DNA of 64,000 nucleotides from an uncultured Clostridia bacterium (GCA_904501765.1 CAJGCM010000001.1:7257-71256), one strand, 5' to 3'; counted from the first letter of the stretch, positions 1 through 26,098 are shown. Numbers and translations: made by a program. The notes: generated from the letters alone by a model not told the origin.

Positions 1-348
1 AGGAAACGTAACACACTTGATGATGTCGAAAATCTGAGTTCCGATTACACTTATAGTACCTACCCATAGGAAGATGGACGCGAAAATCAGGATAATACTG
101 ATAGGTTCCCATTCATTTACAAAGCTAGACGAAAAAAATCGGTACTTCTTAGCAACAATAATGACAATTAGAGACGCCACTGCCATAATTGCCATCCATG
201 CCACCGATGTCCAGATTTCCCAGGACACCAGTTTCGCACAGAGTGTAGTGAGGTATGGAATGACATTTGCGTTTGTCCAGTCGATCACAATACCGAATTT
301 TTCACAAAGTTCATTTAAAGCCTGAGTAGTTTGTTCACTCATAGTCAT
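1..348 (-). CDS. Membrane protein, 3' end cut by window edge (116 codons visible)
   Basis: Own translation of the minus strand (not in the ORF track because it runs off the edge). ATG at 346-348, AAGGAGG at 359-365. MTMSEQTTQALNELCEKFGIVIDW... with two hydrophobic helices (WTSVAWMAIMAVASLIVIIV; ISIILIFASIFLWVGTISVIG). Confidence 0.5.
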   Translation of the reverse strand, partial: MTMSEQTTQALNELCEKFGIVIDWTNANVIPYLTTLCAKLVSWEIWTSVAWMAIMAVASLIVIIVAKKYRFFSSSFVNEWEPISIILIFASIFLWVGTISVIGTQIFDIIKCVTFP

Positions 349-353
349 AAATA

Positions 354-563
354 TCAATCCTCCTTAAGTTCCATGCCGTTCAGAAATAACTTGAGCTTCT
401 CGATACAATCATCGCATAGATCTGTATAATCCGTAGAAAACCCGCCTACCGATCTGAAACACATACCACTTATCGTCTTTCGTTCAAAGTTAATATCCTT
501 TGCGAACCGAATGTTTTCTTTATAGAACGCACCGCACCGATCGCATTGTTTAGCATTAGCCAT
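354..563 (-). CDS. Small Cys-rich zinc-ribbon-like protein (69 aa)
   Basis: ORF 354..614 trimmed to ATG 563 (MANAKQCDRCGAFYKEN...) with GGAG just upstream. Cysteine pairs CDRC ... CDDC. The start overlaps the stop of the Nampt-like gene. Confidence 0.5.
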   Translation of the reverse strand: MANAKQCDRCGAFYKENIRFAKDINFERKTISGMCFRSVGGFSTDYTDLCDDCIEKLKLFLNGMELKED

Positions 564-2025
564 ACATTCTCCTCCGAATATCCATGAAGTTATCGAAGCG
601 AGTGATCGTGCCATCCTTGAAGACAGTGGTCAAATCAGTATACTTATCAGGTACCCAACCACGGTGTTCGTCGGCATATACGAAGCTGCCGTCTTCACGT
701 TGACGCACCCAGCAGCAACCCTTATGGCTCTTCTTCAGATTACCGTCGTCGGTCTTGGGGTCCTTGTAGATGAACAGCTTCTTGTCGCCGAATTCGCCGT
801 ACGTAGCCTTCATAGCCATACCGAAAGTGTCGCGAGTGATAACTGTCATCTTGCCATCCTCATCGAACAGAGCATGGAAACAGAAAGCACCTACGCCGAA
901 CACCACGTTATTGGCCGCAAAGCCACGCTTTTCGAGTTCTGCATAAATCTCAGCCACACGGTTCAGCGTACAGCCATCGCCGTAGATCAGACCGATGTGA
1001 GGATCGAGTTCCTTGTAGCCCTTAGAATTAACGGTACCGCCGAAGACCTCCCACAACTTCTCAATAGTGCGGATAGAAATATCAACGATATTGCCAGAGT
1101 CAGGTCTGATCAGCAGCTTACCGTTATGAGCCATAATCTCGTCCTTACAGGCAGGAATGATGTTGTCGACCATATTCCAATAGTCATACGTATCGGATAC
1201 CATGGAGAAAGACGTATTGGGATACAGCTCAGTCAGCAGCCGCTTCACAAAAGTGATTTCATCGCCGTCGATAGCGTAATTAGCGCCCATGACGGAGTGT
1301 TCCGTGGAGACTGCACCTCGGCCGATACCATTGGTCTTACAGTTGGCGTTATAATATCTGCCGATATAAGGCAGAGCAGGAATGGTGGAGGTCTTGTTGA
1401 AGCTCAGCAGCCAGGATGCGGATGCTCGAATAGAATCCTCGACACAGGACATGCCGCGCATACCGAAGTCGGCCATAGCCATGAAGGGGTCTGCGCCGTC
1501 CGTAGTCTCCTTGTAATACTTCTCAGCGAGATCATGATAGGCTTTACCGATAGTGGCGTAAGCACATGGAGCCCACAGCTCAGCCTGCAAGATACATTCG
1601 ACCCACTGGACAACCCACGCAAAGTCGGGATGAGTGTTCGTCATCTCAACCACAGGGATACCCATGTTTACGATAGAACCCTCCGGCAGAGCACGAATCT
1701 CCAGAGGAAGATAACCGAGTTCATGCAGAGCCTTGATCTTGGACCATTCGGTATTCTCGACGCCGATCTGGACATCCATATAGTATTTATACTCTTGTTC
1801 TACGGCGCTGAGAGGCTTGTTAAAGAACCTATCGTTAAAGCCGTCGATCAGATATTCCTTAATGAAGGGTTGGAGACCGAAGAAGACCATATTGCGGAAT
1901 GCGGGAGACATGTTTTTACGAGGGGTGAGGTAGGAGACCAGCTTGGTGAGGTTCTGAGGATACATCCGGGAATGAGTATGTTTGTAAGTATCAGAGAAGA
2001 GCATCATCATAATATTGGTTTTCAT
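556..2025 (-). CDS. nadV: Nicotinamide phosphoribosyltransferase-family protein (Nampt/NadV-like; candidate Namat of the NARP1 pathway)
   Basis: ORF 556..2112 trimmed to ATG 2025 with AGGAGG at 2033-2038. Family-typical strings: SDTYKHTH near the N-terminus, DFGMRGMS, LLIRPDSGN, GLIYGDG. About 490 aa. Confidence 0.85.
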   Translation of the reverse strand: MKTNIMMMLFSDTYKHTHSRMYPQNLTKLVSYLTPRKNMSPAFRNMVFFGLQPFIKEYLIDGFNDRFFNKPLSAVEQEYKYYMDVQIGVENTEWSKIKALHELGYLPLEIRALPEGSIVNMGIPVVEMTNTHPDFAWVVQWVECILQAELWAPCAYATIGKAYHDLAEKYYKETTDGADPFMAMADFGMRGMSCVEDSIRASASWLLSFNKTSTIPALPYIGRYYNANCKTNGIGRGAVSTEHSVMGANYAIDGDEITFVKRLLTELYPNTSFSMVSDTYDYWNMVDNIIPACKDEIMAHNGKLLIRPDSGNIVDISIRTIEKLWEVFGGTVNSKGYKELDPHIGLIYGDGCTLNRVAEIYAELEKRGFAANNVVFGVGAFCFHALFDEDGKMTVITRDTFGMAMKATYGEFGDKKLFIYKDPKTDDGNLKKSHKGCCWVRQREDGSFVYADEHRGWVPDKYTDLTTVFKDGTITRFDNFMDIRRRMYG

Positions 2026-2056
2026 TTCAATACCTCCTGTTAGTCCAGAACGTGAA

Positions 2057-2716
2057 TCACATACCGGGAATGGCCTGGTACTCGCTGAGCAGCTCCAGCA
2101 TGGCAGGATCATCCTTAGCCAACATCTGGTACAGAGCGATATCCTGCAGCTGCTTAGCCCGCTCCTTCATCTTAGCCTTGAGTTCCGCAGCCTTAGCCCG
2201 ATTGGCGACGCGGGCGTCATAGGCGGTGGTATCGACCTTGGCTACGATCTCCCCCGCGAGACCGACATCGTTACTATCGATGATCTCGACGACAGTAGCG
2301 AGTTCGAGACCTGCGTACGGTGTGCTCACAACGACCATATTGCCGGTTTCGATAGTGCTGTCGAAATTTGCGTAATTGTTACTGGAGATCTTATTGTCAT
2401 CGACAAACTTGACCTTTACAGTGTTCAGATAGTTGGTAATGTTACTCCTATTATTCATAGTATTCTCCTCCAAAATATCATCGTTGGTTTCGTTTACAAG
2501 CGAAAGTTCGCTAGGTTTAAAGTAAAAGCGACCGACTGCACTATAAGGATTTCTTTCGGTGTCTAACTTGACAAGGATCTTGCCGTATTGACCATACTGA
2601 TTCAAAATTACCGTGCCGAGTTTTCCTTTATAGTCATATTTCTTATAACTGTCGCATCGCATTACTTCGACCCGCACACCAGGCTTGAATATCGTATAGA
2701 TCTGGTCCTGCGTCAT
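2057..2716 (-). CDS. Hypothetical protein (219 aa) embedded between the Prs-like and Nampt-like genes
   Basis: Start overlaps the Prs-like stop by 4 nt (ATGA). No motif recognised. An in-frame ATG at 2458 is preceded by GGAGGAG (2465-2471), so a 132-aa C-terminal product (MNNRSNITNY...) is also possible. Confidence 0.6.
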   Translation of the reverse strand: MTQDQIYTIFKPGVRVEVMRCDSYKKYDYKGKLGTVILNQYGQYGKILVKLDTERNPYSAVGRFYFKPSELSLVNETNDDILEENTMNNRSNITNYLNTVKVKFVDDNKISSNNYANFDSTIETGNMVVVSTPYAGLELATVVEIIDSNDVGLAGEIVAKVDTTAYDARVANRAKAAELKAKMKERAKQLQDIALYQMLAKDDPAMLELLSEYQAIPGM

Positions 2717-3516
2717 TTCAACACCTCAATTTTTTCATGACTCTTGGTGAAAATACTATCGGTGGTGAAGACCTTCTTAATCAGGTCGCCATCCAACAAC
2801 TCGCCTTCGAGGATAGTATTCTCACAATGTGAAACATAGAGGTAAATATCTTTTGCACCCAGCTCTTTGAGCTTCTTTGCGCTATGATAGAAAGTACCAC
2901 CTCTGGAGCAGATGTCGTCGATGATGAGGATATCCTTACCGGCAATCTGGTCGACTGCTCCAGCTACATCCAGACCCTCGATCTTACCGGTCTCCCAGTT
3001 GCGCTTCTTGATACCGAAGGCGTAAGGGAGTCTAATCAGATTTGACCGCATTTTCATGCAACCTTCGTCTGGGTAAAACGCGATGAGGTTTTTAACGCCA
3101 GAAGCAGATAGTTTAACTAGTGTCTTAATGAGATACGGTGTCGCGTTAACCACATCCAGATTATCGATTAGCGCTTCGGATACACTAGAATGAGGGTCTA
3201 GAACCGTGACATGGTCGAGTTTGAGGCTGTTCAGGAGCTCCGCAAAATATTTCAGAGTGAGGATGTCCTCGCGAGACTTTGTACGATCTTGGCGGGCATT
3301 GGGGATGTACGGCATATACAGATCGATATGTGTAACGCCGTGAGCCCTCAGATGTTTTACCAGATATATCAGACTAAGAAACTCGCGGTCGTTTTCATAT
3401 CTCCAAGTGATTTGAGCACCGTCACCGTCGGGATATATCTCGGGTTCGTGTTTGACTAAAATTGTTCCATCGGGAAAACTGCCAATGTCGATGATTTTAC
3501 CGTCGATACTGATCAT
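2713..3516 (-). CDS. prs: Ribose-phosphate pyrophosphokinase-like protein (short Prs family; candidate Adps of NARP1)
   Basis: 267 aa. DLYMPYIPNARQDR, VTVLDPHS and the PRPP-loop-like DILIIDDICSRGGT are typical of the Prs/PRTase fold. It is shorter than the canonical ~315-aa Prs. Confidence 0.8.
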   Translation of the reverse strand: MISIDGKIIDIGSFPDGTILVKHEPEIYPDGDGAQITWRYENDREFLSLIYLVKHLRAHGVTHIDLYMPYIPNARQDRTKSREDILTLKYFAELLNSLKLDHVTVLDPHSSVSEALIDNLDVVNATPYLIKTLVKLSASGVKNLIAFYPDEGCMKMRSNLIRLPYAFGIKKRNWETGKIEGLDVAGAVDQIAGKDILIIDDICSRGGTFYHSAKKLKELGAKDIYLYVSHCENTILEGELLDGDLIKKVFTTDSIFTKSHEKIEVLK

Positions 3517-3528
3517 GCAAAAACCTCC

Positions 3529-4068
3529 TTACCGCTTCACGTTGATCTGACACATCTCCATAGTCTTAAGAGCAGCTTCGTGAGTCTCCGGAGTGACACC
3601 TGCACAGCAGGTAGCGTCTACGGAGATTTCGTGGGTGTCAAAGAATGCCGCTTTTAGAATCAGGGCGTTAGACACCACACAAATATCAGTGCAGAGACCG
3701 ATTAACTCGATTTCGTCATTATTCTTGACCAGTCCGCTACACAGCATGCTAACCGGCAGTTCTGTAGATCCGAATGTGAATTTGTCGAGAACATATACAT
3801 TATCGTAATCAGAAGGCGGCATCAATTCTGCCAGAATTTGCCAGCCATCGGTATCTTTGATACAATGCTCCACAGGGAGCTTCTTGCCCTCCTTCGTCTC
3901 GAGATAATCCTCATAATGTGTATCTCTCGTAAAGATGATCATATCACCATTCTTAACTGCCTCGTCGATCTTCTTCTTCACGTTCGGCACAATCGCCTGG
4001 GCCTCCTTAGTACCCAGGGAGCCCGTGATGAAATCGTTCTGCATATCAACAACTACTAATACTTTCAT
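3529..4068 (-). CDS. pncA: Isochorismatase-family hydrolase, nicotinamidase (PncA)-like
   Basis: 179 aa. Catalytic-triad contexts VVVDMQNDF (Asp), LDKFTFGS (Lys), LIGLCTDICV (Cys). Confidence 0.75.
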   Translation of the reverse strand: MKVLVVVDMQNDFITGSLGTKEAQAIVPNVKKKIDEAVKNGDMIIFTRDTHYEDYLETKEGKKLPVEHCIKDTDGWQILAELMPPSDYDNVYVLDKFTFGSTELPVSMLCSGLVKNNDEIELIGLCTDICVVSNALILKAAFFDTHEISVDATCCAGVTPETHEAALKTMEMCQINVKR

Positions 4069-4102
4069 GCTTTTCCTCCTTAAAGTTATGCCAAAAGTTT
4101 GT

Positions 4103-4828
4103 TTATTCGAGCCACCAGTTGTCTATGTAATAGAAACCAATAACACACCCAACGATAAGAATTATCCATGCTATCCAAAATATAACCGTCCAGTTAACGC
4201 TTTTCAGCGACTCCACAGTTTCGTCTATTGTCTGGTTCTTGTAGAAATCTGTACCATCAGTTATCGTGTTGTCACGCAAATCTGTGAATATAGTACCAAC
4301 ATACTCAGTGCCAGTACCGTAATACTGGTATCGGATATGGCTAGACTTCTTAATCGTCTTCAAGTATCCCGTTGCCGGGATATGAATTTTGTTGCTGTTG
4401 AAGGGTACGCCCAGAAAAGTGATCTCCTTACAGGTTCGAGTTTCCCTGTCGATTTCGTCCCACGACCAATAAACCTCAGTTGTAGTATAAGTCTGAGTTT
4501 TACCATTAACCGTTCTGGTCTTAGTGACAGTTCTCGTGTGCCTCGTGTACCTCTCAGTCACTTTCTGAACCCGCATATACTCGCCGCCGATTTCGGAGAA
4601 TGTTACGGCATCGACCGCTTTTAAATCGCCATAAACAAATGCGTTACCAACGTTCGTACGCATTCCGTATTCGAACAAGCTAGCGCTATCGATTTTGAGC
4701 GCCTTGTTGTAAATAGCGTCACGGTCCGCACACGCATCAGAAATACATCCGCCGATCCAAACACCGAGAATCAGAAGTACAGCGATTATGCAAATACTGA
4801 CCAGTACTTCGCGTTTAGTGATCTCCAT
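4103..4828 (-). CDS. Membrane protein with N- and C-terminal TM helices and a beta-rich central domain (LemA partner)
   Basis: TM1 VLVSICIIAVLLILGVWIGG, TM2 WTVIFWIAWIILIVGCVIGFYYI. Lies 3 nt downstream of the LemA-like gene. Confidence 0.6.
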   Translation of the reverse strand: MEITKREVLVSICIIAVLLILGVWIGGCISDACADRDAIYNKALKIDSASLFEYGMRTNVGNAFVYGDLKAVDAVTFSEIGGEYMRVQKVTERYTRHTRTVTKTRTVNGKTQTYTTTEVYWSWDEIDRETRTCKEITFLGVPFNSNKIHIPATGYLKTIKKSSHIRYQYYGTGTEYVGTIFTDLRDNTITDGTDFYKNQTIDETVESLKSVNWTVIFWIAWIILIVGCVIGFYYIDNWWLE

Positions 4829-4831
4829 ATT

Positions 4832-5380
4832 TTATTCTCCAAAAAGGTTCTGGGGAGCGTCAACGGGAGCGTCATACTTCAAATACCCAAAGTCAACGAC
4901 TTCGTAGCCAAGAATATTGAGGAACATACGTGTGGGGAATTTGCGGACATAGCGATTGTAATCCTTAACCTGCTGATTATAGTTGCTACGATGCTCAGCA
5001 ATAAGGTTTTCAGCAATAGAGAGCTCGTTCATAAGCTCCTTATAATTTTCATTAGACTTCAAATCGGGGTATGCTTCGGCAACCACAGTGATGGCGGTAG
5101 TAACATTCTCGACATCACTAGAGCCGGTTCTTCCGTCAACAATCGCCTTCAGGGTTTCGGCTTCGTGCTTATCATACTGCATGACACAGTCGGCGAGGTT
5201 ATAGACCAGATCGACTCGCCGCTTTTCCTGAACGTTAATGTCGGACAGTGCAGTATTCACAGACTCCTCGAGAGAGAAGGCCTTGTTCTGAGCGCCCTGT
5301 GCAGAAAATACACCCAGTAGAGTAACCGCAATAACACATGCGGTAATGATCGCGACGAGCTTGATGATAGAATTATTCAT
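4832..5380 (-). CDS. lemA: LemA family membrane protein
   Basis: N-terminal TM followed by a LemA-like core (EESVNTALSDINVQEKRRVDLVYNL ... AEHRSNYNQQVKDYNRYVRKFPTRMF). Confidence 0.8.
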   Translation of the reverse strand: MNNSIIKLVAIITACVIAVTLLGVFSAQGAQNKAFSLEESVNTALSDINVQEKRRVDLVYNLADCVMQYDKHEAETLKAIVDGRTGSSDVENVTTAITVVAEAYPDLKSNENYKELMNELSIAENLIAEHRSNYNQQVKDYNRYVRKFPTRMFLNILGYEVVDFGYLKYDAPVDAPQNLFGE

Positions 5381-5405
5381 ACTTTTCCTCCTTAAATATC
5401 AAATA

Positions 5406-5786
5406 TTAAAGACCATTCTTCTCAGCCAAATACATCGCTCGTTTTTCAGCAGCAATTTTGATAGCTGCCTCTTCGGTGTCTGCAGAGACGTAACAACAAA
5501 TGGTGCGATCATAACCTCTACCACGTTCTATTACTCGGCCAATATCTTCATAATCATATTCATCCTCGCAAGCCTCGCACCCCACCGCATTACCAGATCT
5601 GTCGAAAGTAACCATCCATGCCGGTCTCAGCATAATCTCGCCGTCTTCGTATTCTTCGATGCATGTCCGACCCCAGCTGTACTCACCGCCGAACTTATTA
5701 GCGATTTGCTCCGCCACACCGCGATTAGTAGTAACAGCGACGATATGATAGTCCGAGTAGCATCCTTTAGTTACAACATAAAACAT
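5406..5786 (-). CDS. Hypothetical protein (126 aa)
   Basis: ORF in the minus-strand gene train. AAGGAG about 7 nt upstream of ATG 5786. No motif recognised. Confidence 0.55.
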   Translation of the reverse strand: MFYVVTKGCYSDYHIVAVTTNRGVAEQIANKFGGEYSWGRTCIEEYEDGEIMLRPAWMVTFDRSGNAVGCEACEDEYDYEDIGRVIERGRGYDRTICCYVSADTEEAAIKIAAEKRAMYLAEKNGL

Positions 5787-5807
5787 AAAAGGCTCCTTTC
5801 TGAGAAA

Positions 5808-6746
5808 TTATTCCAAAATATCGTTAGGCAGGATGTAATCGCCGTCACCAACGACAATGGGGAGCTTACCATCCCAAGTGTCAGCCATGATCTTCTCGAT
5901 AATCTTATCAGTAATAGACTTGTCGATGACGGCGTTTGCCTCTGCCTCGGCTTCAGCAGCAATCTTCAGAGCCTCAGCCTCAGCCTTGGCAATATCAATC
6001 TCGGCCTGCGCAGCCTTCAGCTTAGCCTGAGCATCTGCCTCAGCCTTAGCGACCTTGGTCTCGTTCTCGTAGTCGGCCTTCAACTTAGCCTGCTCGGCGA
6101 TCATCTTCTCTTCGACGGCCAGCTCAAAAGCATCGCTGAAATCAATGTTAGTGATCACCACGGCTACGATGTCAACGAAGTACTCCTCGCCGACAGCCTC
6201 CTTGATAGCCGCCTCTACTGCGGGAGAAATACTTGCGCGATTAGCGATGATGTCCATAGCCTTATGACCAGACAGAACAGACTTGGTCTTTTCCAAAGCG
6301 ATGGAGTTGATACGACTCTCGAGCACCTCCAGCTTACCGTACTGAGTGGCGATGTCGACTACCTTATCGCTAATAATCTGGTACTGGATAGTCATGTTGA
6401 TGGACATGGTCTGCGCGTCGAGAGAGTACGCGGCAGCTTCGGTCTCGAGATTCTGAACCTTAGTGTCATAAACAATATAAGCGTTAGTAGCCCACAGGTC
6501 GTAGTGCGTGCCAGCTGTCTTTACGTCTTCGATCTTACCCAAGTGCTTAACAACAGCGACTTCGCCAGAGCTTACCGTGTGGAAGCTGAAGGGGACGAGA
6601 ATGAATGCGATGACGAGAGCGATAGTGGCCAGTACGGCGATAACGCCAGCGCCAGACTTATCATTGTCGAAACACACACCTGCGATTACGCCTGCTACAA
6701 TAGCAAATACCGCAATTACAATACCTACAAAAATACCAATAGCCAT
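5808..6746 (-). CDS. SPFH/band-7 (prohibitin/flotillin-like) domain membrane protein
   Basis: Long N-terminal hydrophobic segment. SPFH-like core (SSGEVAVVKHLGKIEDVKTAGTHYDLW ... TMSINMTIQYQI). C-terminal Ala/Glu/Lys coiled coil (AKAEADAQAKLKAAQAEIDIAKAEAEALK). Confidence 0.75.
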   Translation of the reverse strand: MAIGIFVGIVIAVFAIVAGVIAGVCFDNDKSGAGVIAVLATIALVIAFILVPFSFHTVSSGEVAVVKHLGKIEDVKTAGTHYDLWATNAYIVYDTKVQNLETEAAAYSLDAQTMSINMTIQYQIISDKVVDIATQYGKLEVLESRINSIALEKTKSVLSGHKAMDIIANRASISPAVEAAIKEAVGEEYFVDIVAVVITNIDFSDAFELAVEEKMIAEQAKLKADYENETKVAKAEADAQAKLKAAQAEIDIAKAEAEALKIAAEAEAEANAVIDKSITDKIIEKIMADTWDGKLPIVVGDGDYILPNDILE

Positions 6747-6808
6747 ACTTTTTTCTCCTTTAAGTTAATAATGTTTTGGTTTGGGAATTTTTGAATGTGG
6801 AGGGAGTG

Positions 6809-6964
6809 CTATGTGAGGAACTGTAAATATACGAAGCCGGTGGTCCCTAAAGCCAGTAGCACGAATGAGGGCCAGTAAACCGGTGCTCTATTAGCGGCAC
6901 GAACCGCGACAATTGGTGCTTGCCAGAATACAAGAAACAAAAATAGGATTTTTAATATCTCCAT
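6809..6964 (-). CDS. Small membrane protein (51 aa)
   Basis: Own translation (below the ORF-track cutoff): MEILKILFLFLVFWQAPIVAVRAANRAPVYWPSFVLLALGTTGFVYLQFLT. AAGGAG about 9 nt upstream. Confidence 0.45.
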   Translation of the reverse strand: MEILKILFLFLVFWQAPIVAVRAANRAPVYWPSFVLLALGTTGFVYLQFLT

Positions 6965-6977
6965 CTTAATCATCTCC

Positions 6978-7112
6978 TTACTCACCTAACTTCTTAATAA
7001 CGTCCATGAAGATTTTGATAGCGACTGCGAGACAGTAGATACCGAAACAAATCCAGTAACCTACCCCAGCGTCAATAATGGCGCCGATGATAGCAAACAG
7101 TGCGATTGGCAT
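6978..7112 (-). CDS. Small membrane protein (44 aa)
   Basis: Own translation: MPIALFAIIGAIIDAGVGYWICFGIYCLAVAIKIFMDVIKKLGE. GGAGG 7 nt upstream of ATG 7112. Confidence 0.45.
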   Translation of the reverse strand: MPIALFAIIGAIIDAGVGYWICFGIYCLAVAIKIFMDVIKKLGE

Positions 7113-7124
7113 GCGAGTACCTCC

Positions 7125-7835
7125 TTAATAATTATAATTTACAGCTTCCTGCCGAGTGATGAAGAAGTGGATACCTGGTGCGCATTCGTGCCAGCGGTTC
7201 GGATCGAAGTTGTCAACCTTGACAATCTCGCCCACCCTATAAGCAAAATTCTCGTCATGCTTACTGTATACGACGTCTACGTTAGCAGGGGACCCGTCAA
7301 TGTTTGTGAAGGAAATAACCTTTGCGTGAGAAGCCCGACACTTGCGAGAAGTTGCGGAGCATCTAAGGGCGTCTTCGGGGATTTCCAACTTGACAATATA
7401 GTTTCCGCGTACCTTCTTAAACGCTGTAAAAGAACCTTCCTCAGGACAAGTGAGAGGATAATAAACGTTCTTAGCGGTTTCAAGGTCTGCACCAAAGAGG
7501 TTTGCACCAAAGAGGTTTGCACCAGAGAGGTTTGCACGACGGAGGTCTGCACCAAAGAGGTTTGCACCAGAGAGGTTTGCACCAGAGAGGTCTGCACGAC
7601 GGAGGTTTGCACCAGAGAGGTTTGCACCAGAGAGGTCTGCACGACGGAGGTTTGCACCAGAGAGGTTTGCACCAGAGAGGTTTGCACCAGAGAGGTTTGC
7701 ACCAAAGAGGTCTGCACCAAAGAGGTCTGCACGACGGAGGTCCGCACGCTCGCCTTCGGGATCGTTAACGAGCCATAGCTTGTGTTTTCTCAGAAAGACT
7801 TCGAGTTCGGCTTGAGTAATCTTTTTCATGCTCAT
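7125..7835 (-). CDS. Pentapeptide-repeat protein with a distinct C-terminal globular domain
   Basis: About 17 consecutive near-perfect A(D/N)L(S/F/R)(G/R) pentapeptides (residues ~31-118). These are followed by a ~115-aa domain ending ...[21 protein letters not shown]. Confidence 0.85.
7484..7750. repeat. Tandem 15-bp repeat (~17 copies) encoding the pentapeptide array
   Basis: Units such as gcaccagagaggttt / gcaccaaagaggtct / gcacgacggaggtct repeat head to tail with only 1-4 substitutions. Confidence 0.9.
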
Positions 7836-7861
7836 AGGTTTCTCCTTTCAATTCTACACAA

Positions 7862-7897
7862 TGAAAATGAGAAGACACCGTGTTTCAGATGTCTTCA
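7862..7897 (-). terminator. Intrinsic terminator-like hairpin after the helicase gene
   Basis: Minus strand: GAAGACATC-tgaaacac-GGTGTCTTC followed by TCATTTTCATT. Confidence 0.55.
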
Positions 7898-7928
7898 AGC
7901 TTACCGAAATCAGTTAATCCAAGACTAA

Positions 7929-7962
7929 CCGTTCCATCAAAGAAAATGTTTTTTACGCGAAT
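7929..7962 (-). promoter_or_regulatory. Conserved promoter-like motif, degenerate copy
   Basis: Minus strand: ATTCGCGTAAAAAACATTTTCTTTGATGGAACGG. It keeps the TCGCG and AAACA boxes, but the -10-like box is TTTGAT. It lies upstream of the 7862-7897 hairpin and the pentapeptide gene. Confidence 0.35.
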
Positions 7963-7970
7963 CCAAACAG

Positions 7971-9212
7971 CTACTTCCATCCAGACCACTTAGTCTCATT
8001 AAATATCTTTTTCTCTTTGATAGCCTTTGAGATAGCTAGGTCGATACCACTTCTGGTCTTTAGATGATAATAGTGGAGATCTACAAACTTAGTATTCAGT
8101 CGGTCGATCCGTCCAGATGCCTGTGTTAACACCTTATAGCTATAGTTCTGACTATAAAATATGATAGTGTCGGTCGTAATACAGCACCAGCCCTCACACC
8201 CTGCCGTGTACTGCACTAGATATACCCACTTGTCACCAGTCGGAATAGGTTGATGCGCATGTCCAGACCACTCAGCAATCTCAGTACCAGGGTCATATCC
8301 TAGATTTAACAACATCTCTCGTTCGTAATCGAAGTTGTAAAATATAATAGCTTTAGGATGATCCTCCAACAGCTCTAATAACTTCACCTGCCTACTCTCA
8401 TCAGAGTTCACTATTCTCCGTAATGTATAGCACAATCCAGACGCCTGCTGTATAGGTTCGTCCTTAAACGGGTCCCATCGATTACGAATAACATCCTTAT
8501 ACTTCGCGATATCGTAGTTACAAAACACGTCTTCATGGTGTTGGATGGTATGACGCTTGAAATCCATATCTATGAGAATGCGGTCTCGCAATCTTATAAG
8601 GCGACCAGTGTTATAGTATCCGGCTATTTTAGGAAAATTCCTGCAATATGGATCGTACTTAACGTGCTCTCGAATGAACTCAGTTCGATTCTTGTAGAAT
8701 CCATTGGCGATAAACAAAGGTACGTAGTCCATCCAGGTGTCACCTGCGGTTGCTGATAACATTACCCATTCGTTGCTCTTAACGATCTTCAGGAAGGATT
8801 TTACCCAAGCACCCGAGCCGACTACTCGCTGCTCATCAAATATAAAGAAAGCGTTGTTTACGTCTATGTATTTCTGAACGTTATTCCAACTATCAATTAC
8901 GATCTTATGGTTATAACGACTCAGCCCTGGTTTTGGATACATCTCGAATGGAATAAGTTCACCTTCCCATTCATGTTTATCCCGCTTCATAGCAGTAGTG
9001 ATAATGTATAGGTCTTTTGGATTTTCCATCGGGGTATAACCGTTTTCATCGATCCAACCGCCCTGTCGCTGAAAATAAAAGAAGAGGCCGGTCCGAGACT
9101 TACCCGAACCGACCTGACCATTGAATACACTACCAACAAACGCTTTCTTTACTGCTTCCATCTGGAAGTCGTATAGAAATGGTTTACCGTTACCGGGTTC
9201 TATTTTGCTCAT
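7971..9212 (-). CDS. Superfamily-2 (DEAD/SNF2-like) helicase
   Basis: Motif I GQVGSGKSRTG, motif II FIFDEQ, motif III LSATAG, motif VI QASGRIDRLN. Confidence 0.8.
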   Translation of the reverse strand: MSKIEPGNGKPFLYDFQMEAVKKAFVGSVFNGQVGSGKSRTGLFFYFQRQGGWIDENGYTPMENPKDLYIITTAMKRDKHEWEGELIPFEMYPKPGLSRYNHKIVIDSWNNVQKYIDVNNAFFIFDEQRVVGSGAWVKSFLKIVKSNEWVMLSATAGDTWMDYVPLFIANGFYKNRTEFIREHVKYDPYCRNFPKIAGYYNTGRLIRLRDRILIDMDFKRHTIQHHEDVFCNYDIAKYKDVIRNRWDPFKDEPIQQASGLCYTLRRIVNSDESRQVKLLELLEDHPKAIIFYNFDYEREMLLNLGYDPGTEIAEWSGHAHQPIPTGDKWVYLVQYTAGCEGWCCITTDTIIFYSQNYSYKVLTQASGRIDRLNTKFVDLHYYHLKTRSGIDLAISKAIKEKKIFNETKWSGWK

Positions 9213-9380
9213 TCATCGCTTCGTCTCCTTCTTTTCATATTTAACGGGCCTGTGAGTGTTCAAGTTAATAGACTCGGTAAGACACTCGCTACAAGGCGCT
9301 TCCGTATCGCCCAAGTCTTTGTGCTTGCACATCCCACAGTACTCATGGAAATATACTTCCTTGTACGCTTGATGATCCAT
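9213..9380 (-). CDS. Small zinc-ribbon-like protein (55 aa)
   Basis: Own translation: MDHQAYKEVYFHEYCGMCKHKDLGDTEAPCSECLTESINLNTHRPVKYEKKETKR. GGAGG 6 nt upstream. The stop abuts the helicase ATG. Confidence 0.5.
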   Translation of the reverse strand: MDHQAYKEVYFHEYCGMCKHKDLGDTEAPCSECLTESINLNTHRPVKYEKKETKR

Positions 9381-9394
9381 GCGCTGACCTCCGT

Positions 9395-9940
9395 TTAACC
9401 GATACGCAGCACTGTCTCTCTAGGAGCAGGCTGAGTTACTGCGTCGGCGAAGGTCTTGCCGATACGAGATACGCTGGACAGATATCCCTTGTACTCCTCG
9501 GTGATGCCGTCAAGCTCGACTTCAAACTTCTCAAGAGCACGAGTCTTAGCCTCACGCTCTACGTCAGCACGAACTCTCTTAGCGTCGATCTTAGCGGCCT
9601 CCTCAGTAAGCTCCTTGAGAACTACCGCCTTGATATCGGAATACTCCGCTTCAACAGCGTCGCTCACCTGCTTATGAATATCGCGCTTGATATCGCCGAC
9701 GATACGATCGGTTGTCTTACTAGCCGCCTGCTTAACCTCAAAAGCAACGGACTTCTCAACAGCACGTTCGATCATGCTATCGGGAATATCAACGGGTGTT
9801 CTGCTGGCCAACTCATCGATAGAGCGGTTGAGATTCTCACTGATTTTAGCCATCTTAGAGTGCGTTGCGATAGCGTAGCCGATTCCGATCAGACCGATAG
9901 CAGCACCTGCTACACCTACGATTCCGTCAAACTTGTTCAT
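9395..9940 (-). CDS. Membrane-anchored hypothetical protein
   Basis: N-terminal TM GIVGVAGAAIGLIGIGYAIA, then a charged helical region. No catalytic motif. Confidence 0.6.
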   Translation of the reverse strand: MNKFDGIVGVAGAAIGLIGIGYAIATHSKMAKISENLNRSIDELASRTPVDIPDSMIERAVEKSVAFEVKQAASKTTDRIVGDIKRDIHKQVSDAVEAEYSDIKAVVLKELTEEAAKIDAKRVRADVEREAKTRALEKFEVELDGITEEYKGYLSSVSRIGKTFADAVTQPAPRETVLRIG

Positions 9941-9985
9941 GTTAGTTGTCTCCTTTCGAAATTGAAGTTTATCAGACTGAGGGGT

Positions 9986-10270
9986 TTACTTCAGTACCGT
10001 ATACTCGAGTGAGTCACTACCATATGCCATATCAAGTACATGAGGAATGGCGTCTTCGGTACAGGTGAACTTCTCCTGGAACGGCTCGGTTAACAAGACC
10101 ATACCTCCGTCTACCTCACGAAGGTCGACCTCCATGCCGTACTGCTCGTAGTAAATATAATCTACGTAGCCCTCGTCCATATCCTCCTGTAGCAGATTAT
10201 CTCCACTACCCTCGGAAATCTTTACGATCTGTCCAGCCTCTGGTACGAAAATAAAGATGCTGTCGAACAT
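9986..10270 (-). CDS. Hypothetical acidic protein (94 aa)
   Basis: ORF 9986..10429 trimmed to ATG 10270 (MFDSIFIFVPEAG...) preceded by AAAGGAGAGGA. Confidence 0.55.
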   Translation of the reverse strand: MFDSIFIFVPEAGQIVKISEGSGDNLLQEDMDEGYVDYIYYEQYGMEVDLREVDGGMVLLTEPFQEKFTCTEDAIPHVLDMAYGSDSLEYTVLK

Positions 10271-10325
10271 AATGAATCCTCTCCTTTTTTGAAATGTTTT
10301 ATGAAAATCTCCCACCGGGAATTTT

Positions 10326-10538
10326 TCAGTTTTGAATATCGAGTAACTCCACCATATACTCCCGCAATTCGTTTTTAGTCTTAACCAGATCTCGTTTAAC
10401 GACGCTAAGCTTAGCTTCCAAAATATCAACTAATTCAGGATCGTCGTCTCTGAGTAAGTAACGAATGAGCGCCTCCTGCTTATGGGTTAGTGTTCTCTCA
10501 TCTTCTAAAATGTCTATTAGTGGTCTCATGGGTATCAT
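10326..10538 (-). CDS. Hypothetical protein (70 aa)
   Basis: In-train ORF. The start may be the ATG at 10529 (MRPLIDIL...). Confidence 0.45.
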   Translation of the reverse strand: MIPMRPLIDILEDERTLTHKQEALIRYLLRDDDPELVDILEAKLSVVKRDLVKTKNELREYMVELLDIQN

Positions 10539-10541
10539 CCT

Positions 10542-10751
10542 TTATACGTATAACCGCCCGTTATACGGTAGTTTGTTTTTAATCATTTCGTCCCAACATG
10601 AAGTGTGAATATACTGCTTGAGCCCTCGTTTGGTGACTACCAATTCACAGTTATTTTGATGCGGATTTTGTTTCAGAATACTATCAGGCACTTGCTCAAC
10701 ATATTTTCCACATAGCGGGCATCTAGTATTTACTATCATTCGTCGACCCAT
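10542..10751 (-). CDS. Small Cys-containing hypothetical protein
   Basis: CPLCGKY ... C ... HTSC pattern. Start uncertain (10751 or 10739). Overlaps the upstream gene. Confidence 0.45.
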   Translation of the reverse strand: MGRRMIVNTRCPLCGKYVEQVPDSILKQNPHQNNCELVVTKRGLKQYIHTSCWDEMIKNKLPYNGRLYV

Positions 10752-10941
10752 TGGGAATCAGCTCCTTTGCGCTCATGTAAATATACATCAGATGACTTCT
10801 ACCATGATGCTTAGAAAATACAATACGAATATTGTCATCCTTACGCATCTCATCAAGCAATCGCAAATGATCTTTCTGCCAGTCTTTGAGTTCAACACCA
10901 TAAAACTTTTCTGCGAACGTAACGACGTCCATAGAGATCAT
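10723..10941 (-). CDS. Hypothetical protein (72 aa)
   Basis: In-train ORF directly after the RadC-like gene. Confidence 0.45.
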   Translation of the reverse strand: MISMDVVTFAEKFYGVELKDWQKDHLRLLDEMRKDDNIRIVFSKHHGRSHLMYIYMSAKELIPNGSTNDSKY

Positions 10942-10942
10942 C

Positions 10943-11422
10943 TCACAAATATCCTTTCTCTTTTAAACTGCTATATGAATCACCAACAATGATATGGTCT
11001 AACACTTCAACTCCAAGAATCTTACCAGCTTCGGACAATCGCTTAGTGACTTCAACGTCCTCACGACTAGGTTTCGGGTCGCCGCTTGGATGATTATGCA
11101 TGAAAATGACGCTTACTGCGTTTGCCAATAGAGCTTTCTGGAACGCTTCTCGTGGACTTACTAGAGACGCATTTACAGTCCCATGCGAGAGTTCGAACAC
11201 CCCGATGACTTTGTTTTTCGTATTCATACAAATCATGTACATATATTCCTCGGGTTCTTCATGAATATGCATGAAGTCTTTGCCGATAGTAACCGCATCG
11301 TCCGGGCTCTTGATCGCATAGGATAAGTCTGGGTAATTCGTGCTTACCTCTTTTTCGAGTACCACCCGTTTGTTCTCTGTAAGTTTAGTTTTGTATTTAA
11401 TCATTCTGACCATTGTTGCCAC
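10943..11422 (-). CDS. radC: RadC-like JAB/MPN domain protein
   Basis: JAMM-type motif FMHNHPSGDPKPSREDVEVTKRL, then GVEVLDHIIVG. Confidence 0.85.
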   Translation of the reverse strand: MATMVRMIKYKTKLTENKRVVLEKEVSTNYPDLSYAIKSPDDAVTIGKDFMHIHEEPEEYMYMICMNTKNKVIGVFELSHGTVNASLVSPREAFQKALLANAVSVIFMHNHPSGDPKPSREDVEVTKRLSEAGKILGVEVLDHIIVGDSYSSLKEKGYL

Positions 11423-11460
11423 TCTCCTCGGTTATGTTTTCCAGTGGCTTAGTGACAGAG

Positions 11461-11489
11461 AAATATAAAGGCCCACCCGAAGGTGAGCC
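11461..11489 (-). terminator. Intrinsic terminator
   Basis: Minus strand: GGCTCACC-ttcg-GGTGGGCC followed by TTTATATTT. Confidence 0.6.
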
Positions 11490-11554
11490 CAAACTACTCA
11501 TAATTAGGTAACGGCACTATCTTAATGTCGTCAGGAAGCACTACACATCACCTC

Positions 11555-12124
11555 CTATTTACCGCACAGAACATACAGCGGTCTGCCGTGTACTGTGCCG
11601 CACATTTCTACTAGATTGCGAGAGATTAACGCATTGAGACCGAACACACCAACCAATTGTTTAATATAATCGCCATATATAGCGTCCATATCGGTTGTCT
11701 CTAATTTTACGACTGAATAGATGCGATCGATGTATGATTCGGTGTAATATAGGTCGTCTGGTTTATCGCTAACATCAACCAGTTTCACATCGGTCAATAC
11801 ATACGCCCAACCGTGATCTAATTTAGTGGCGGCCCAAATATACATATCGAGCTTTTTGTTATATAATACTAACTCGTCCGTATACTTCTTTAGAAGCTCA
11901 TGGCCAAACGCCGTGATAATATAATCCTGTTGAACCGCTTCGTGAAATGTTCCGGATACGATCTCCCAGTCCGTCATAGTAGCCTCACGAATATAGTTGT
12001 TAGGAACGAGATCCTCTAGCATATTCGCCAGAGTTCTATAGTCCAAGTACCCCTTCTCTTTTCCGTAAGCAGATACGTCGAAGCCGAATACTTTACCATC
12101 GTACATATTAATCGTTCTGGTCAT
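11555..12124 (-). CDS. Hypothetical protein (189 aa)
   Basis: In-train ORF. No motif recognised. Confidence 0.55.
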   Translation of the reverse strand: MTRTINMYDGKVFGFDVSAYGKEKGYLDYRTLANMLEDLVPNNYIREATMTDWEIVSGTFHEAVQQDYIITAFGHELLKKYTDELVLYNKKLDMYIWAATKLDHGWAYVLTDVKLVDVSDKPDDLYYTESYIDRIYSVVKLETTDMDAIYGDYIKQLVGVFGLNALISRNLVEMCGTVHGRPLYVLCGK

Positions 12125-12890: not shown

Positions 12891-12968
12891 TGGTGCCGCC
12901 CATGGGATTCGAACCCATACCTGTACGGGACTTAAATCCGTTGCCTCTTCCAGTTGGGCTACGGCGGC
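12891..12968 (-). tRNA. tRNA-like gene, probable anticodon UAA (Leu codon family) but with type-I architecture and two stem mismatches
   Basis: Minus strand: GCCGCCG-TA-...GG...-ACGGA-TTTAAGT-CCCGT-...-ATGGG-TTCGAAT-CCCAT-GGGCGGC-A-CCA. U8, A14, G18G19 and the T-loop are all in place and CCA is encoded. G7/G66 and A31/C39 are mispaired. There is no long variable arm. Confidence 0.6.
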
Positions 12969-13228: not shown

Positions 13229-13313
13229 TGGTCCCGCCGATGGGATTCGAACCCATAAGCTTTACAGCATCGGAACCTAAATCCGACATGTTTTCCGATT
13301 TCATCACGGCGGG
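13229..13313 (-). tRNA. tRNA-Leu (anticodon UAG), type II with long variable arm
   Basis: Minus strand: CCCGCCG-TG-...GG...-TCGGA-TTTAGGT-TCCGA-TGCTGTAAAGCTT-ATGGG-TTCGAAT-CCCAT-CGGCGGG-A-CCA. Perfect acceptor, anticodon and T stems. Anticodon at 13277-13279. Confidence 0.85.
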
Positions 13314-13928: not shown

Positions 13929-15287
13929 TTAACGTTTGTTGAAGTAGTCGTCATAGCCTTCGGGCCAATCCCAAGGAACGTCATCGTCCAACGGGAAGTC
14001 CGGAATAACAGTCTCTTCAACTATGTATGGTTCATCCGCCACAAATCGTTCGAAGTCTCCGAAGTCGGAAATGCCAGGTTTGCGGTTCTTGCCTTTGCCG
14101 GAGCCGTAGATTACCGCGTCGATTAGGGTATTGAAGTAGGATCGATCGATTATGTCTTCTTTTCCGAGAGTTCTGACAAACTCGGACTCTAACCATCGAT
14201 AGTCACTAGCACCGGTAACTGAGTTGTACTTGACGTTACCTTGCGGGTCTTTAGCGTCTCTGACGAGTTCGCCTCCGCCATAACCAGGTTTAATCGGACA
14301 GAAATTACCGATACGTCCGACGAATTGGCGATCATGCCCTTTCTCGATCAGATCGATGAGTTCCGCCTGTCTCTCAGGATTCGCGTCATTCTTGCGAAGC
14401 TTTTTCAACTCGTCCTCATATGTCGCGACGTCAGGAAGATTCTCGTTCATGTCTAAATAGATTGCCGAACCCTTAACCTCATTTGTCACACACATATCGT
14501 CGAACTCGATCGGCTCTCTACTAAAGAGCTTCTTAAACACGTATGGAACGGCAAACTGGGCACCCGTAGCGGTCCATTGTCCGCCTTTCTTTTTATTGTC
14601 GCCAGGCGCGTAACCGTACATTCTTTCACAAGCTTCCGCAGTAGCGTATTTGGCAATGTAGACAGCGTCGTTTACAATACAAATACGATCGTACGTAGCC
14701 TCATGCTCAAATGTGTAAGAATATTTCTTACCGAACTCCATAACAAACTGAATGATATCGGGGGTAGCGTTCGCTATCTTTATACTATCAGTCTTGATAT
14801 GCAACACCGTGAAACCGCGAGCCTGAACCTCGTCTTGAAGGGTCTTCATAAACAACGCTCCCCGACAGGCAATCACATTATTCTTGTTTCGAATGTCGCG
14901 CATCGGGTTCTCGAAGTTGGCAGCGGTCAGACCGTAGCATGAATTCAAGGCTGTTTTGGTGGCGTTTGCCAGATCTTTTGCTCTAGATTCATCCGTTAGA
15001 TATGGGGCTAACCTGCCGCCCATCATTTTTCTCGCAGTGTCATAGTCGCCATGCTTGATAGCAACTCGAGCCTCTAGCAATTCTTTGAAATGTTGAGTGT
15101 ACTCTCCAAAATAATTCAATGCAATTATGCTAGACGGATGCATGCTGGCAACGTCAAGTAACGCCACATTTGTGTAAATTCCAGGTTCTGCGTAGACATA
15201 TCCACCTCTGCCGACATCAACCCCGCGGTATATATTCTTACCGTTTACACATTCGTATCCGGGAAATGCGTTAAGTATCTTAGTCAT
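13929..15287 (-). CDS. Family-B DNA polymerase, polymerase (palm/fingers/thumb) half
   Basis: Motif A LDVASMHPSSII (DxxSLYPS), motif B KTALNSCYG (KxxxNSxYG), motif C LHIKTDSI (DTDS-like). Trimmed to ATG 15287 (GGGAGA upstream). No exonuclease motifs in this ORF. Confidence 0.85.
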   Translation of the reverse strand: MTKILNAFPGYECVNGKNIYRGVDVGRGGYVYAEPGIYTNVALLDVASMHPSSIIALNYFGEYTQHFKELLEARVAIKHGDYDTARKMMGGRLAPYLTDESRAKDLANATKTALNSCYGLTAANFENPMRDIRNKNNVIACRGALFMKTLQDEVQARGFTVLHIKTDSIKIANATPDIIQFVMEFGKKYSYTFEHEATYDRICIVNDAVYIAKYATAEACERMYGYAPGDNKKKGGQWTATGAQFAVPYVFKKLFSREPIEFDDMCVTNEVKGSAIYLDMNENLPDVATYEDELKKLRKNDANPERQAELIDLIEKGHDRQFVGRIGNFCPIKPGYGGGELVRDAKDPQGNVKYNSVTGASDYRWLESEFVRTLGKEDIIDRSYFNTLIDAVIYGSGKGKNRKPGISDFGDFERFVADEPYIVEETVIPDFPLDDDVPWDWPEGYDDYFNKR

Positions 15288-16134
15288 ACAAATCATCTCC
15301 CATATCTACATATTCAAACACCCATCCTCGCATATAACGAGATTTTCCGTTTAACACTAGTGATACTCCGGCTTCGCTAATTCCGAGTTCGTATGCCGCT
15401 TGACGCGCACTATCGTACGTGCGGACCTCCCCACTCGACATATGTGTCGCGCGAACCGGTCTTTTTAGTCGTCTATACGAATGGCGTTCATGATCAAACG
15501 ATTCGTCAAAGCCGTCCTCTAATGCAAAGTAATATCCGTTACAGCTGCGAGTTCGACCACGAATGACCGAGCTTATCGAAGACTGAGAGATTCCGAGTCG
15601 ACGAGCGGCTTCTTGTTGACTTTCAAAGAATAATCTTGTACCACTTCCAAGATGAATAGCTACCACGGGTGTTCTTCGAACTTCATTGGCTCGCTCGATA
15701 TCTTCTCTCGTAAAATATCTAAAATGGCCATTGCGGATAGAATCTTGCACATTGTCGTATTGATCACCCCACGCAAGATTCCAAACCTCATTGTTTGACG
15801 GATCATCGTCTAAGTGACGCACTTCCGGATATCCGTCCGGATTCGGAATAAACGCTTCGGCCACTAGTCGATGTAAATATCTATGAATTCTACGACCGTT
15901 GCAGCGAAGCGACACATCAACATGACCACTTCTCAATGGTGTTCCCCATATGAACGATGATGAACACTCAGACCACAGTCGAGCTTTTGTGCTAATCCAA
16001 TATCCAGGGATATCATAAATCGGCTTCCATCGTTCGTCCATATAATAATCGTCTACATATCTGTAGTCGCCATACACGTATTCTCCAGGAAACCCGTCGA
16101 TATCCCAATTGTGACATTCATACTCTCTACGCAT
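15280..16134 (-). CDS. Free-standing HNH homing endonuclease (NUMOD4 / HNH_3 / NUMOD1-like HTH architecture) inserted in the polymerase gene
   Basis: WKPIYDIPGYWISTKARLWS (NUMOD4-like). HRYLHRLVAEAFIPNP ... VRHLDDDPSNNEVWNLAWGDQYDN (HNH). Two RRLGISQSSIS / YELGISEAGVS HTH repeats. Has its own SD GGAAGGAGGGG. Confidence 0.85.
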   Translation of the reverse strand: MRREYECHNWDIDGFPGEYVYGDYRYVDDYYMDERWKPIYDIPGYWISTKARLWSECSSSFIWGTPLRSGHVDVSLRCNGRRIHRYLHRLVAEAFIPNPDGYPEVRHLDDDPSNNEVWNLAWGDQYDNVQDSIRNGHFRYFTREDIERANEVRRTPVVAIHLGSGTRLFFESQQEAARRLGISQSSISSVIRGRTRSCNGYYFALEDGFDESFDHERHSYRRLKRPVRATHMSSGEVRTYDSARQAAYELGISEAGVSLVLNGKSRYMRGWVFEYVDMGDDLYD

Positions 16135-16151
16135 AGGTATCCCCTCCTTCC

Positions 16152-26056: not shown

Positions 26057-26066
26057 ATTGTCATCT

Positions 26067-26098
26067 CCTTTCATAAAGGAGGATGTTTTAAACGCGAG
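26067..26098 (-). promoter_or_regulatory. Conserved promoter-like motif
   Basis: Minus strand: CTCGCGTTTAAAACATCCTCCTTTATGAAAGG. Confidence 0.5.

Follow-up and report, generated by a model that had tools for sequence, protein, structure and literature searches.

Among the main arms of bacterial immunity is the depletion of NAD+, to which phages are known to respond with NARP1, NARP2 and NARP3. NARP1 consists of the kinase Adps and the transferase Namat, with a Namat homologue encoded near 97% of the members of the Adps clade (Osterman et al., 10.1101/2024.02.11.579819), and the NARP1 of phage FADO has been validated genetically (10.1101/2024.02.11.579819). A variant, NARP1-AP, carries in addition the macro phosphatase Adpp (10.64898/2026.01.28.702374), whereas NARP2 is formed by Nampt and Nmnat (KVP40) and NARP3 by PnuC and NadR (PMC13464706). 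Here, we analysed an island of five genes (positions 354-4068, minus strand) in a stretch of 64,000 nucleotides from an uncultured Clostridia bacterium (GCA_904501765.1 CAJGCM010000001.1:7257-71256), which is called the window at its full length. The window belongs to a phage, as it encodes a terminase, a portal protein, a head maturation protease, a DNA polymerase, a serine integrase and two tRNA-Leu. An initial annotation had read the island as NARP1-like with extra components; NAD+ reconstitution as its kind of function and the Adps and Namat families are retained here, but the canonical nicotinamide route is not. The island is probably that portion of a conserved cassette of four enzymes for NAD+ reconstitution, a deamidated form of NARP1, which falls inside the window.

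The proposed pathway would be triggered when a defence NADase cleaves NAD+ into ADP-ribose (ADPR) plus nicotinamide. The PncA-like enzyme would then convert nicotinamide to nicotinate, the Adps-like kinase would turn ADPR into ADPR pyrophosphate (ADPR-PP), a Ser-type Namat-like transferase would join ADPR-PP and nicotinate to form nicotinic acid adenine dinucleotide (NaAD), and a phage NadE would amidate NaAD to NAD+. Two considerations underlie such a scheme: a nicotinamidase beside a nicotinamide-using Namat would be self-defeating, and a NadE is sensible only if the product is a deamidated dinucleotide. Among schemes that employ all conserved genes, it is also the simplest. We infer each of its substrates and products from gene content, protein families, residue states and co-variation; the support from comparative genomics is strong, and the chemistry of the whole route is predicted.

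In the window, the first gene of the cassette encodes the PncA-like nicotinamidase (3529-4068, minus strand, 179 aa, Pfam Isochorismatase). It is followed on the same strand by the predicted ADPR pyrophosphokinase of the Prs family (Adps-like, 2713-3516, 267 aa, phrog_619 'ribose-phosphate pyrophosphokinase'), an accessory protein of 219 aa (2057-2716, its C-terminal half corresponding to phrog_3489), the Ser-type Namat-like protein (556-2025, 489 aa, NAMPT_N plus NAPRTase, phrog_448), which is predicted to be a nicotinate ADP-ribose transferase, and a zinc-ribbon protein of 69 aa (354-563, CxxC...CxxC) without family match. All five open reading frames (ORFs) had been annotated at these positions, and the labels then given (nicotinamidase-like, Prs-like, unknown, Nampt-like and zinc ribbon) agree with the family scans. 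Each gene is preceded by a GGAGG-type ribosome-binding site. The stop codon of the Adps-like gene and the start codon of the 219-aa gene overlap as ATGA, which bears out the earlier remark that an unknown gene is translationally coupled between the Prs-like and Nampt-like genes; the Namat-like gene starts 688 bp downstream of the Adps-like gene with this single gene intervening, and its 3' end overlaps the start of the zinc-ribbon gene. A longer ORF (556-2112) was rejected as the Namat-like gene, since it is an upstream extension and the ribosome-binding site lies at the start at 2025, as in the gene call of the contig L188 described below. Plus-strand ORFs within the island were discarded as antisense shadows. 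A promoter and terminator scan of the island gave no signal over background, and megablast of the island against the INPHARED phages gave zero matches.

The gene for the fourth enzyme was seen in L188, an ENA contig of 101,793 bp with 99.992% identity to positions 1-12025 of the window, which extends beyond its left edge. Past the zinc ribbon, L188 encodes a membrane protein of 132 aa (phrog_23747; only the N-terminal part lies in the window, at 1-342, minus strand, where the gene leaves the left edge), a macro protein of 159 aa, an ORF of 63 aa and a NadE of 257 aa (L188:12729-13502). The NadE had escaped the initial annotation because it lies beyond the edge of the window; a search for NadE, macro and NADAR genes within the window likewise found none there; they lie past the left edge. 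The cassette was then compared in 100 related loci fetched with the Nampt-like protein (20 from gut Clostridia genomes and metagenome-assembled genomes (MAGs), 80 from IMG/VR) and in a contrast set of 80 loci fetched with the FADO Namat. The one-strand order PncA-like, Adps-like, Namat-like and NadE-like was present in nearly all of the ~100 related loci, with the PncA-like gene directly upstream of the Adps-like gene in ~95 of 100 and with Adps-like and Namat-like genes abutting in most. The arrangement does go beyond the two-gene NARP1 pathway, as had been claimed. The same annotation had treated the nicotinamidase and the zinc ribbon as two flanking additions, which holds for the lineage-specific zinc ribbon but not for the nicotinamidase, a conserved core partner.

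The Namat-like protein matches phrog_448 with an E value of 2.4e-154 and is 41% identical to the Namat of FADO. Its best match in the PDB is the Namat of SPbetaL1 (9w5x/9w5w, 357 bits), compared to 202 bits for human NAMPT, so that this comparison assigns it to Namat rather than to cellular Nampt, as had been suspected. With residues numbered as in SPbetaL1 Namat and pocket states counted in 87 unique sequences of the clade, the core residues D13, Y15, F189, R192, R306, D308, G360, D361, T398, R399 and D400 were conserved in 87/87, the window included, and the catalytic His corresponds to residue 243. The amide-binding Asp215 was replaced by Ser in 87/87 unique sequences and in 100/100 clade members (Ser213 in the window, nucleotides 1387-1389), and the pocket residue Ala242 by Ser in 87/87 (Ser240 in the window, nucleotides 1306-1308). 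In a direct phmmer alignment, these two serines stand opposite D219 and A244 of human NAMPT. Position 215 is Ala in the locus L107 and in the human gut phage Phass-1, both of them with Ser242. The Asp of 'DFGMRG' was also considered as the specificity residue and rejected, as the numbering of 9w5x puts the specificity Asp in 'GTDT', which here reads 'KTST'.

In SPbetaL1 Namat, Asp215 hydrogen-bonds nicotinamide, and the D215A mutation results in 8.1-fold less NAD+ synthesis (PMC12774641). Its human counterpart, D219 of NAMPT, has been described as fundamental to substrate specificity (PMC7096376), and D219S is listed as a substrate-affinity switch (PMC4919578). The pocket of the clade has gained two hydroxyls and lost an acidic residue by which a carboxylate would be repelled, and a fit to nicotinate is predicted. 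The switch described by Khan et al. reportedly went towards nicotinic acid. An enzyme that joins ADPR-PP to nicotinamide, as first proposed for this gene, is thus unsupported, given that the nicotinamide-binding Asp is Ser and that the clamp departs from the published Namat signature.

The state of the pocket varied together with gene content. Among 78 canonical loci, position 215 was Asp in 60 and Glu in 18, Ala242 accompanied Asp215 in 60/60, the selectivity-clamp helix (SCH) had a length of 11 residues, and neither PncA nor NadE was encoded within 10 kb in any locus (0/78). In the 101 loci with a non-acidic residue at this position (Ser in 100, Ala in L107), residue 242 was Ser, the SCH was 20-21 residues long, and PncA and/or NadE were present in every case (101/101), both of them together with Adps in 91; the exceptions to the full gene set were mostly short contigs. 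A naive Fisher test of the association between pocket and gene content gives p ~1e-52, to be read with the caution that the loci are related and that independent events are what counts. In an unbootstrapped neighbour-joining tree, all non-acidic forms fell in one clade, and they are treated here as a single old and diversified lineage.

These data bear on the possibility that the island is a canonical NARP1 working from ADPR and nicotinamide, in which the nicotinamidase and NadE would be independent auxiliary metabolic genes that happen to lie nearby. The core genes are indeed members of the Adps and Namat families, their arrangement is that of NARP1, and accessory insertions are known in such operons (Adpp, 10.64898/2026.01.28.702374; RyDEP, 10.64898/2026.05.28.727677). 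However, Namat would lose its substrate to a nicotinamidase of the same operon, the amide-binding Asp is lost wherever PncA and NadE are present while Asp or Glu is kept wherever they are absent, the D215A change cripples the SPbetaL1 enzyme (PMC12774641), and the SCH signature is lacking. A canonical NARP1 is therefore regarded as very improbable.

The deamidated cassette was also found outside the immediate relatives of the window. The first three cassette genes of Phass-1, of the code-15 clade, are annotated in GenBank as nicotinamidase, Prs and Nampt; of the two 'hypothetical proteins' encoded next, the second matches NadE (tblastn E 2e-49). The Phass-1 transferase combines Ala215 and Ser242 with a fully canonical clamp, GAYTYQYVTRD. 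An independent origin of the Phass-1 cassette was considered and dropped, as the neighbour-joining tree groups the non-acidic forms together, and no convergence is claimed. All four cassette genes are also present, in a different order, in MT835544. For a family-wide survey, 1.84 billion representatives were searched and the best 150 (clusters at 50% identity) were scored: 47 were non-acidic at position 215 and 97 had Asp with Ala242, and Ser242 accompanied the non-acidic residue in 46/46 of those with a readable position 242. Many of the Namat/Nampt representatives (P0122-P0270) had lengths of 550-1100 aa and matched the query in 2-4 separate stretches, which suggests that inteins or endonucleases are often inserted in genes of this family.

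Two of the non-acidic representatives were picked for context (L201 and L202), and the cassette was present in both. L202 is a phage contig. In L201 (128-4614), an NrtR-like Nudix plus winged-helix regulator is followed by Adps, PncA, Namat and NadE, and a methyl-accepting chemotaxis gene adjoins the cassette, which looks bacterial; its Adps has the Adps motifs and its Namat combines Ala215 and Ser242 with the canonical clamp GSYTYQYNTRD. On balance, the deamidated pathway appears to be widespread in phages of the human and animal gut (~100 loci), and to exist also as a seemingly bacterial operon under an NrtR-type regulator.

The kinase of the window was assigned to Adps by several comparisons. 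It matches phrog_619 with an E value of 3.8e-66 and has the motifs LDPHS and IIDDICSRGGT. On a hidden Markov model built from 63 Adps that adjoin a canonical Namat it scored 226.6 bits, compared to 130.5 bits for E. coli Prs, so that on this profile the product of 2713-3516 is an Adps rather than a cellular Prs. It is 32% identical to the FADO Adps (133 bits, vs. 83 bits to E. coli Prs), and it fell far under the cut-off of every Prs equivalog model of NCBIfam. In an alignment of 79 clade members, the 63 canonical Adps and E. coli Prs, both Adps groups shared LD.HS in place of the DLHA of Prs, lacked the N-terminal and C-terminal segments of Prs and had, as an Adps-only feature of the catalytic loop, a two-residue insertion with TG, K.R.W.TG (KKRNWETGKI in the window). 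Judged by sequence, the fit of the kinase to Adps is good but not perfect.

The clamp of the transferase is more divergent. The remodelled SCH, encoded at 829-891 (minus strand) inside the Namat-like gene, reads GAFCFHALFDEDGKMTVITRD in the window, with 21 residues vs. 11 in the SPbetaL1 and FADO Namat (GSFTYQYNTRD). The insertion of 9-10 residues was found in 100/100 clade members and in L107 but in 0/78 canonical loci. The adenine-stacking aromatic residue at SCH position 3 was retained in 100/100 (Phe381 in the window, equivalent to F392).

Kinase and clamp matter for a second alternative, a Preiss-Handler booster without recycling of ADPR, in which the Prs-like kinase would make phosphoribosyl pyrophosphate (PRPP), the transferase would make nicotinic acid mononucleotide (NaMN), the host NadD would convert it to NaAD and the phage NadE would complete the route. 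The changes in the pocket and the linkage to PncA and NadE fit this alternative equally well, the transferase passes the NCBIfam model NF006629 'nicotinate phosphoribosyltransferase' (447.9 bits vs. a cut-off of 405), the adenine-clamp signature is absent (Met for R40 and Val for Y396, plus the insertion), and Namat keeps PRPP activity in vitro (PMC12774641). Preiss-Handler genes have also been reported from gut jumbo phages, in a survey that lists pncA, nadE and NAMPT by annotation, unlinked to ADPR chemistry (PMC11662467). Against it, the kinase fits the Adps profile over Prs and has motifs exclusive to Adps, F392 is kept by every member, related cassettes have a full canonical clamp, and macro and NADAR genes lie inside the cassettes. 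Moreover, the cassette supplies all steps but NadD, NMNAT motifs being essentially absent. Taken together, we judge the booster to be unlikely.

The deamidated pathway with ADPR-PP rather than PRPP as the donor is favoured on indirect evidence: the kinase is of the Adps family, SCH position 3 has a conserved aromatic residue and the full clamp is present in some members, the cassettes contain macro and NADAR genes, one seemingly bacterial cassette has an NrtR-like regulator in front of it, and the NMNAT/NadD signature is essentially absent from the cassettes. Regarding the latter, a search in all frames for the NMNAT motif G..F.P.H.GH found none in the 64-kb window or in L188, as a motif search only, which could miss a divergent Nmnat. 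Among ~190 loci, a single ORF had the NMNAT/NadD motif. This sole ORF (L010:9453-10565, 370 aa, GGSFDPLHVGH) is located immediately downstream of NadE on a contig from a Roseburia MAG.

The ADPR-handling genes embedded in the cassettes encode macro proteins in 63 loci and NADAR proteins in 37. In L188, the macro protein of 159 aa is encoded 0.6 kb past the zinc ribbon and matches phrog_335 'phosphatase' (E 1.9e-49) and the yeast ADPR-1''-phosphate phosphatase Poa1p (6LFU, E 1.7e-7), with a score of 18.5 bits on Pfam Macro, under the cut-off of 22. This Poa1p-type protein beside NadE would probably turn ADPR-1''-phosphate into ADPR for the pathway, as in NARP1-AP. Other genes of the cassettes also vary. 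The NADAR match has an E value of 2.7e-27, a small HAD-like protein with DxDxT is encoded in 24 loci and also in Phass-1, and a radical-SAM-like protein of 210 aa is encoded between PncA and Adps in 18 loci; examples of such variable genes are L097:11913-12326, L040:4375-4782 and L045:8518-9150.

The two enzymes that act on the amide group were examined likewise. The PncA-like protein matches Pfam Isochorismatase (E 1.3e-26), and its closest solved relative is the pyrazinamidase/nicotinamidase of P. horikoshii (1ILW, E 1.3e-13). Among 78 clade members, the catalytic D8, K96 and C131 (CTDICV) were invariant, as were D49, H51 and H68, which bind the metal; all six align with those of 1ILW. The Asp-His-His metal site is one that we take to be specific to nicotinamidases, and from its residues the enzyme looks active. 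Regarding NadE, the homologues of L001 and L011 scored 164 and 183 bits on TIGR00552, with a cut-off of 63.65, and the PP-loop SGGKDS was invariant among the homologues. The NadE of L188 (257 aa, GISGGKDS, phrog_11189 with an E value of 2.9e-61) is of the TIGR00552 class, and the NadE of the cassette is by these matches a genuine one. A NadE without the cassette on the available DNA was found in the phages L197-L200, which is uninformative either way.

Several observations weigh against the deamidated pathway as proposed. In the clamp loop (SCL), stacking calls for Arg, Lys or Tyr at the third position, but Arg40 was replaced by Met in 87/87 sequences (Met39 in the window); in the SCH, Tyr396 was replaced by Val in 85/87, including the window, and GAFCFHALFDEDGKMTVITRD, with its 10-aa insertion and Val at the Tyr396 equivalent, fails the published Namat signature. 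With a clamp so altered, binding of ADPR-PP by the clade of the window is not assured. The kinase keeps a Prs-like Gln (PNARQDR) and has PDEGCMKMR where most Adps carry PD.GA.KRY, and the PncA-like protein scored 33.9 bits on the nicotinamidase equivalog of NCBIfam, whose cut-off is 174. The predicted specificity for nicotinate derives from mutagenesis of human NAMPT and from co-variation; Ser or Ala at position 215 does not by itself exclude the use of nicotinamide, and the association between pocket and gene content may stem from a single origin and not from repeated selection. Finally, the NadE and macro genes lie outside the window and are seen only in the near-identical contig L188.

Compared to the described systems, the cassette resembles NARP1 in that an Adps-family kinase is encoded by a phage, in an early or accessory region, beside a Nampt-derived transferase with a conserved core, and in its presumed role, the restoration of NAD+ after NADase-type defence. 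It differs from NARP1 in the transferase, with Ser for the amide-binding Asp and for Ala242 and with an SCH and SCL that depart from the clamp signature, and in the nicotinamidase and NadE that are absent from the 78 canonical loci, which give a predicted NaAD intermediate and four enzymes instead of two. The Poa1p-type macro gene of L188 and of the 63 related loci recalls NARP1-AP, although it is located between the transferase and NadE and not between Adps and Namat, has a phosphatase activity that is only predicted, and accompanies the deamidated set of enzymes. With the bacterial Preiss-Handler salvage (PncA, PncB, NadD and NadE) the pathway would share its first and last steps and the coupling of nicotinate, but Namat-type and Adps-type enzymes replace PncB and NadD and would bypass NaMN and reuse ADPR. 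NARP2 and NARP3 are likewise phage-encoded counter-defences that restore NAD+, but neither the window nor the cassettes showed a signature of Nmnat or NadR, and the window lacks PnuC. Identity with NARP3 was rejected, NARP3 being PnuC plus NadR. In L191, a PnuC-type transporter of nicotinamide mononucleotide or nicotinamide riboside (L191:1-635, PF04973), a NARP3-like component, is encoded ~3-4 kb upstream of a PncA-Adps-219-Namat-Macro-NadE cassette.

No description of NARP1 together with a nicotinamidase or NadE was found in the searchable literature, the NARP1 papers and the supplements of the aRES preprint included. We lean towards the view that the cassette represents a further phage NAD+ pathway, in which an enzyme derived from Namat has switched from nicotinamide to nicotinate and is flanked by a dedicated nicotinamidase and NadE. 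If so, the reaction of ADPR-PP and nicotinate to NaAD would be a new enzymatic activity without described counterpart, and a substrate rule would hold in which Asp or Glu215 with Ala242 means nicotinamide and Ser or Ala215 with Ser242 means nicotinate. About one-third of the nearest metagenomic clusters of the Namat family would then belong to this class, mostly from phages of gut Clostridia without a cultured representative, and annotation and anti-defence finders that name any pair of Prs and Nampt 'NARP1' would mislabel it. As a guess, the deamidated detour might be an adaptation to gut Firmicutes with nicotinate-based salvage, whose own nicotinamidase may remove nicotinamide fast.

The protein of 219 aa had no match among Pfam (E <= 0.01), NCBIfam or RyR and macro models, the RyDEP domain PF02026 thus being absent, and only its C-terminal half matched phrog_3489 (E 2e-19). 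In the AlphaFold2 model (pLDDT 78.5), two small beta-barrels of SH3-like form are combined with a long C-terminal helix. Foldseek gave weak PsaE, YorP and Agenet-like matches in the PDB and, in BFVD, uncharacterised proteins of phages; a profile search of PDB sequences with the family revealed resemblance to SH3-like, PsaE or YorP proteins only. The family has at least 323 metagenome homologues, and a scan of viral contigs with its alignment gave one locus. In the window and L188, L001, L002 and L191, the gene lies between Adps and Namat; in L005 and L193, it is located upstream of PncA at a distance of one or two genes; and in L195, beside a macro gene, and L003, beside DUF2828, it lies outside an NAD cassette. 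The zinc ribbon gave no match in Pfam, PHROGs or NCBIfam and, among the ~100 related loci, was found only in the window, L188 and L189, together with a 40%-identical ORF in L003.

The 219-aa protein, possibly along with the zinc ribbon, might be a working component of the pathway, whether as a scaffold, as a regulator or as a sponge that takes up immune signals derived from ADPR. The 219-aa gene is coupled between Adps and Namat, the slot occupied by Adpp in Vibrio phage Gary and by RyDEP in phage DyoEdafos, and the family was inside or next to an NAD cassette in 6/8 sampled contexts and beside a macro gene in one more. Nevertheless, most cassettes are without this gene, the family also occurs without nearby NAD genes (L003 and L195), the protein shows neither a fold of the RyR, macro or enzyme-like kind nor a conserved motif of catalytic appearance, and the phages sampled for context belong to a single family, with genomes of ~100 kb and a common gene order, in which adjacency may be inherited. 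A place in the pathway is for these reasons considered quite unlikely, less so than a canonical NARP1 but more so than the Preiss-Handler booster. The 219-aa protein is rather read as a mobile accessory of this phage lineage and probably a binding protein, not an enzyme, for which an anti-defence role is possible by analogy with the slot of Adpp and RyDEP. Both small proteins occupy variable slots of the cassette and are, most probably, additions without enzymatic function rather than pathway steps.

Directly upstream of the cassette, a membrane-associated block (4103-6746, minus strand) encodes an SPFH/Band7 protein (5808-6746), an ORF of 126 aa, LemA (4832-5380) and a 241-aa protein of phrog_3886 (4103-4828), with Band7 in the same position in L001, L002 and L005. 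On the other side, ~5-9 kb past the left edge of the window, L188 (16905-20479) encodes RlaP, a CCA-adding/PolyA_pol protein with HD and RtcB, a set that resembles tRNA repair, and then Thy1; the trio of RlaP, PolyA_pol and RtcB also follows the cassette in L191.

Further along the window, the minus strand encodes a pentapeptide-repeat protein (7125-7835; ANLSG/ADLFG) with a C-terminal DUF5758 domain, whose DNA is internally repetitive. The two tRNA-Leu genes are at 12891-12968 and 13229-13313, with anticodons TAA and TAG. The DNA polymerase/primase of phrog_4210 (13929-18917, minus strand) is divided in two ORFs (16152-18917 and 13929-15296) with an HNH homing-endonuclease ORF (15280-16134) between them. 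A patch of low GC content (26000-32000, 0.38-0.43) with reversed GC skew contains the large serine recombinase/integrase (29499-31136, plus strand, phrog_95), which suggests a lysogeny module. In the structural region, an ORF of 2562 aa (41471-49159, minus strand) presumably encodes the tape-measure protein or a giant tail protein.

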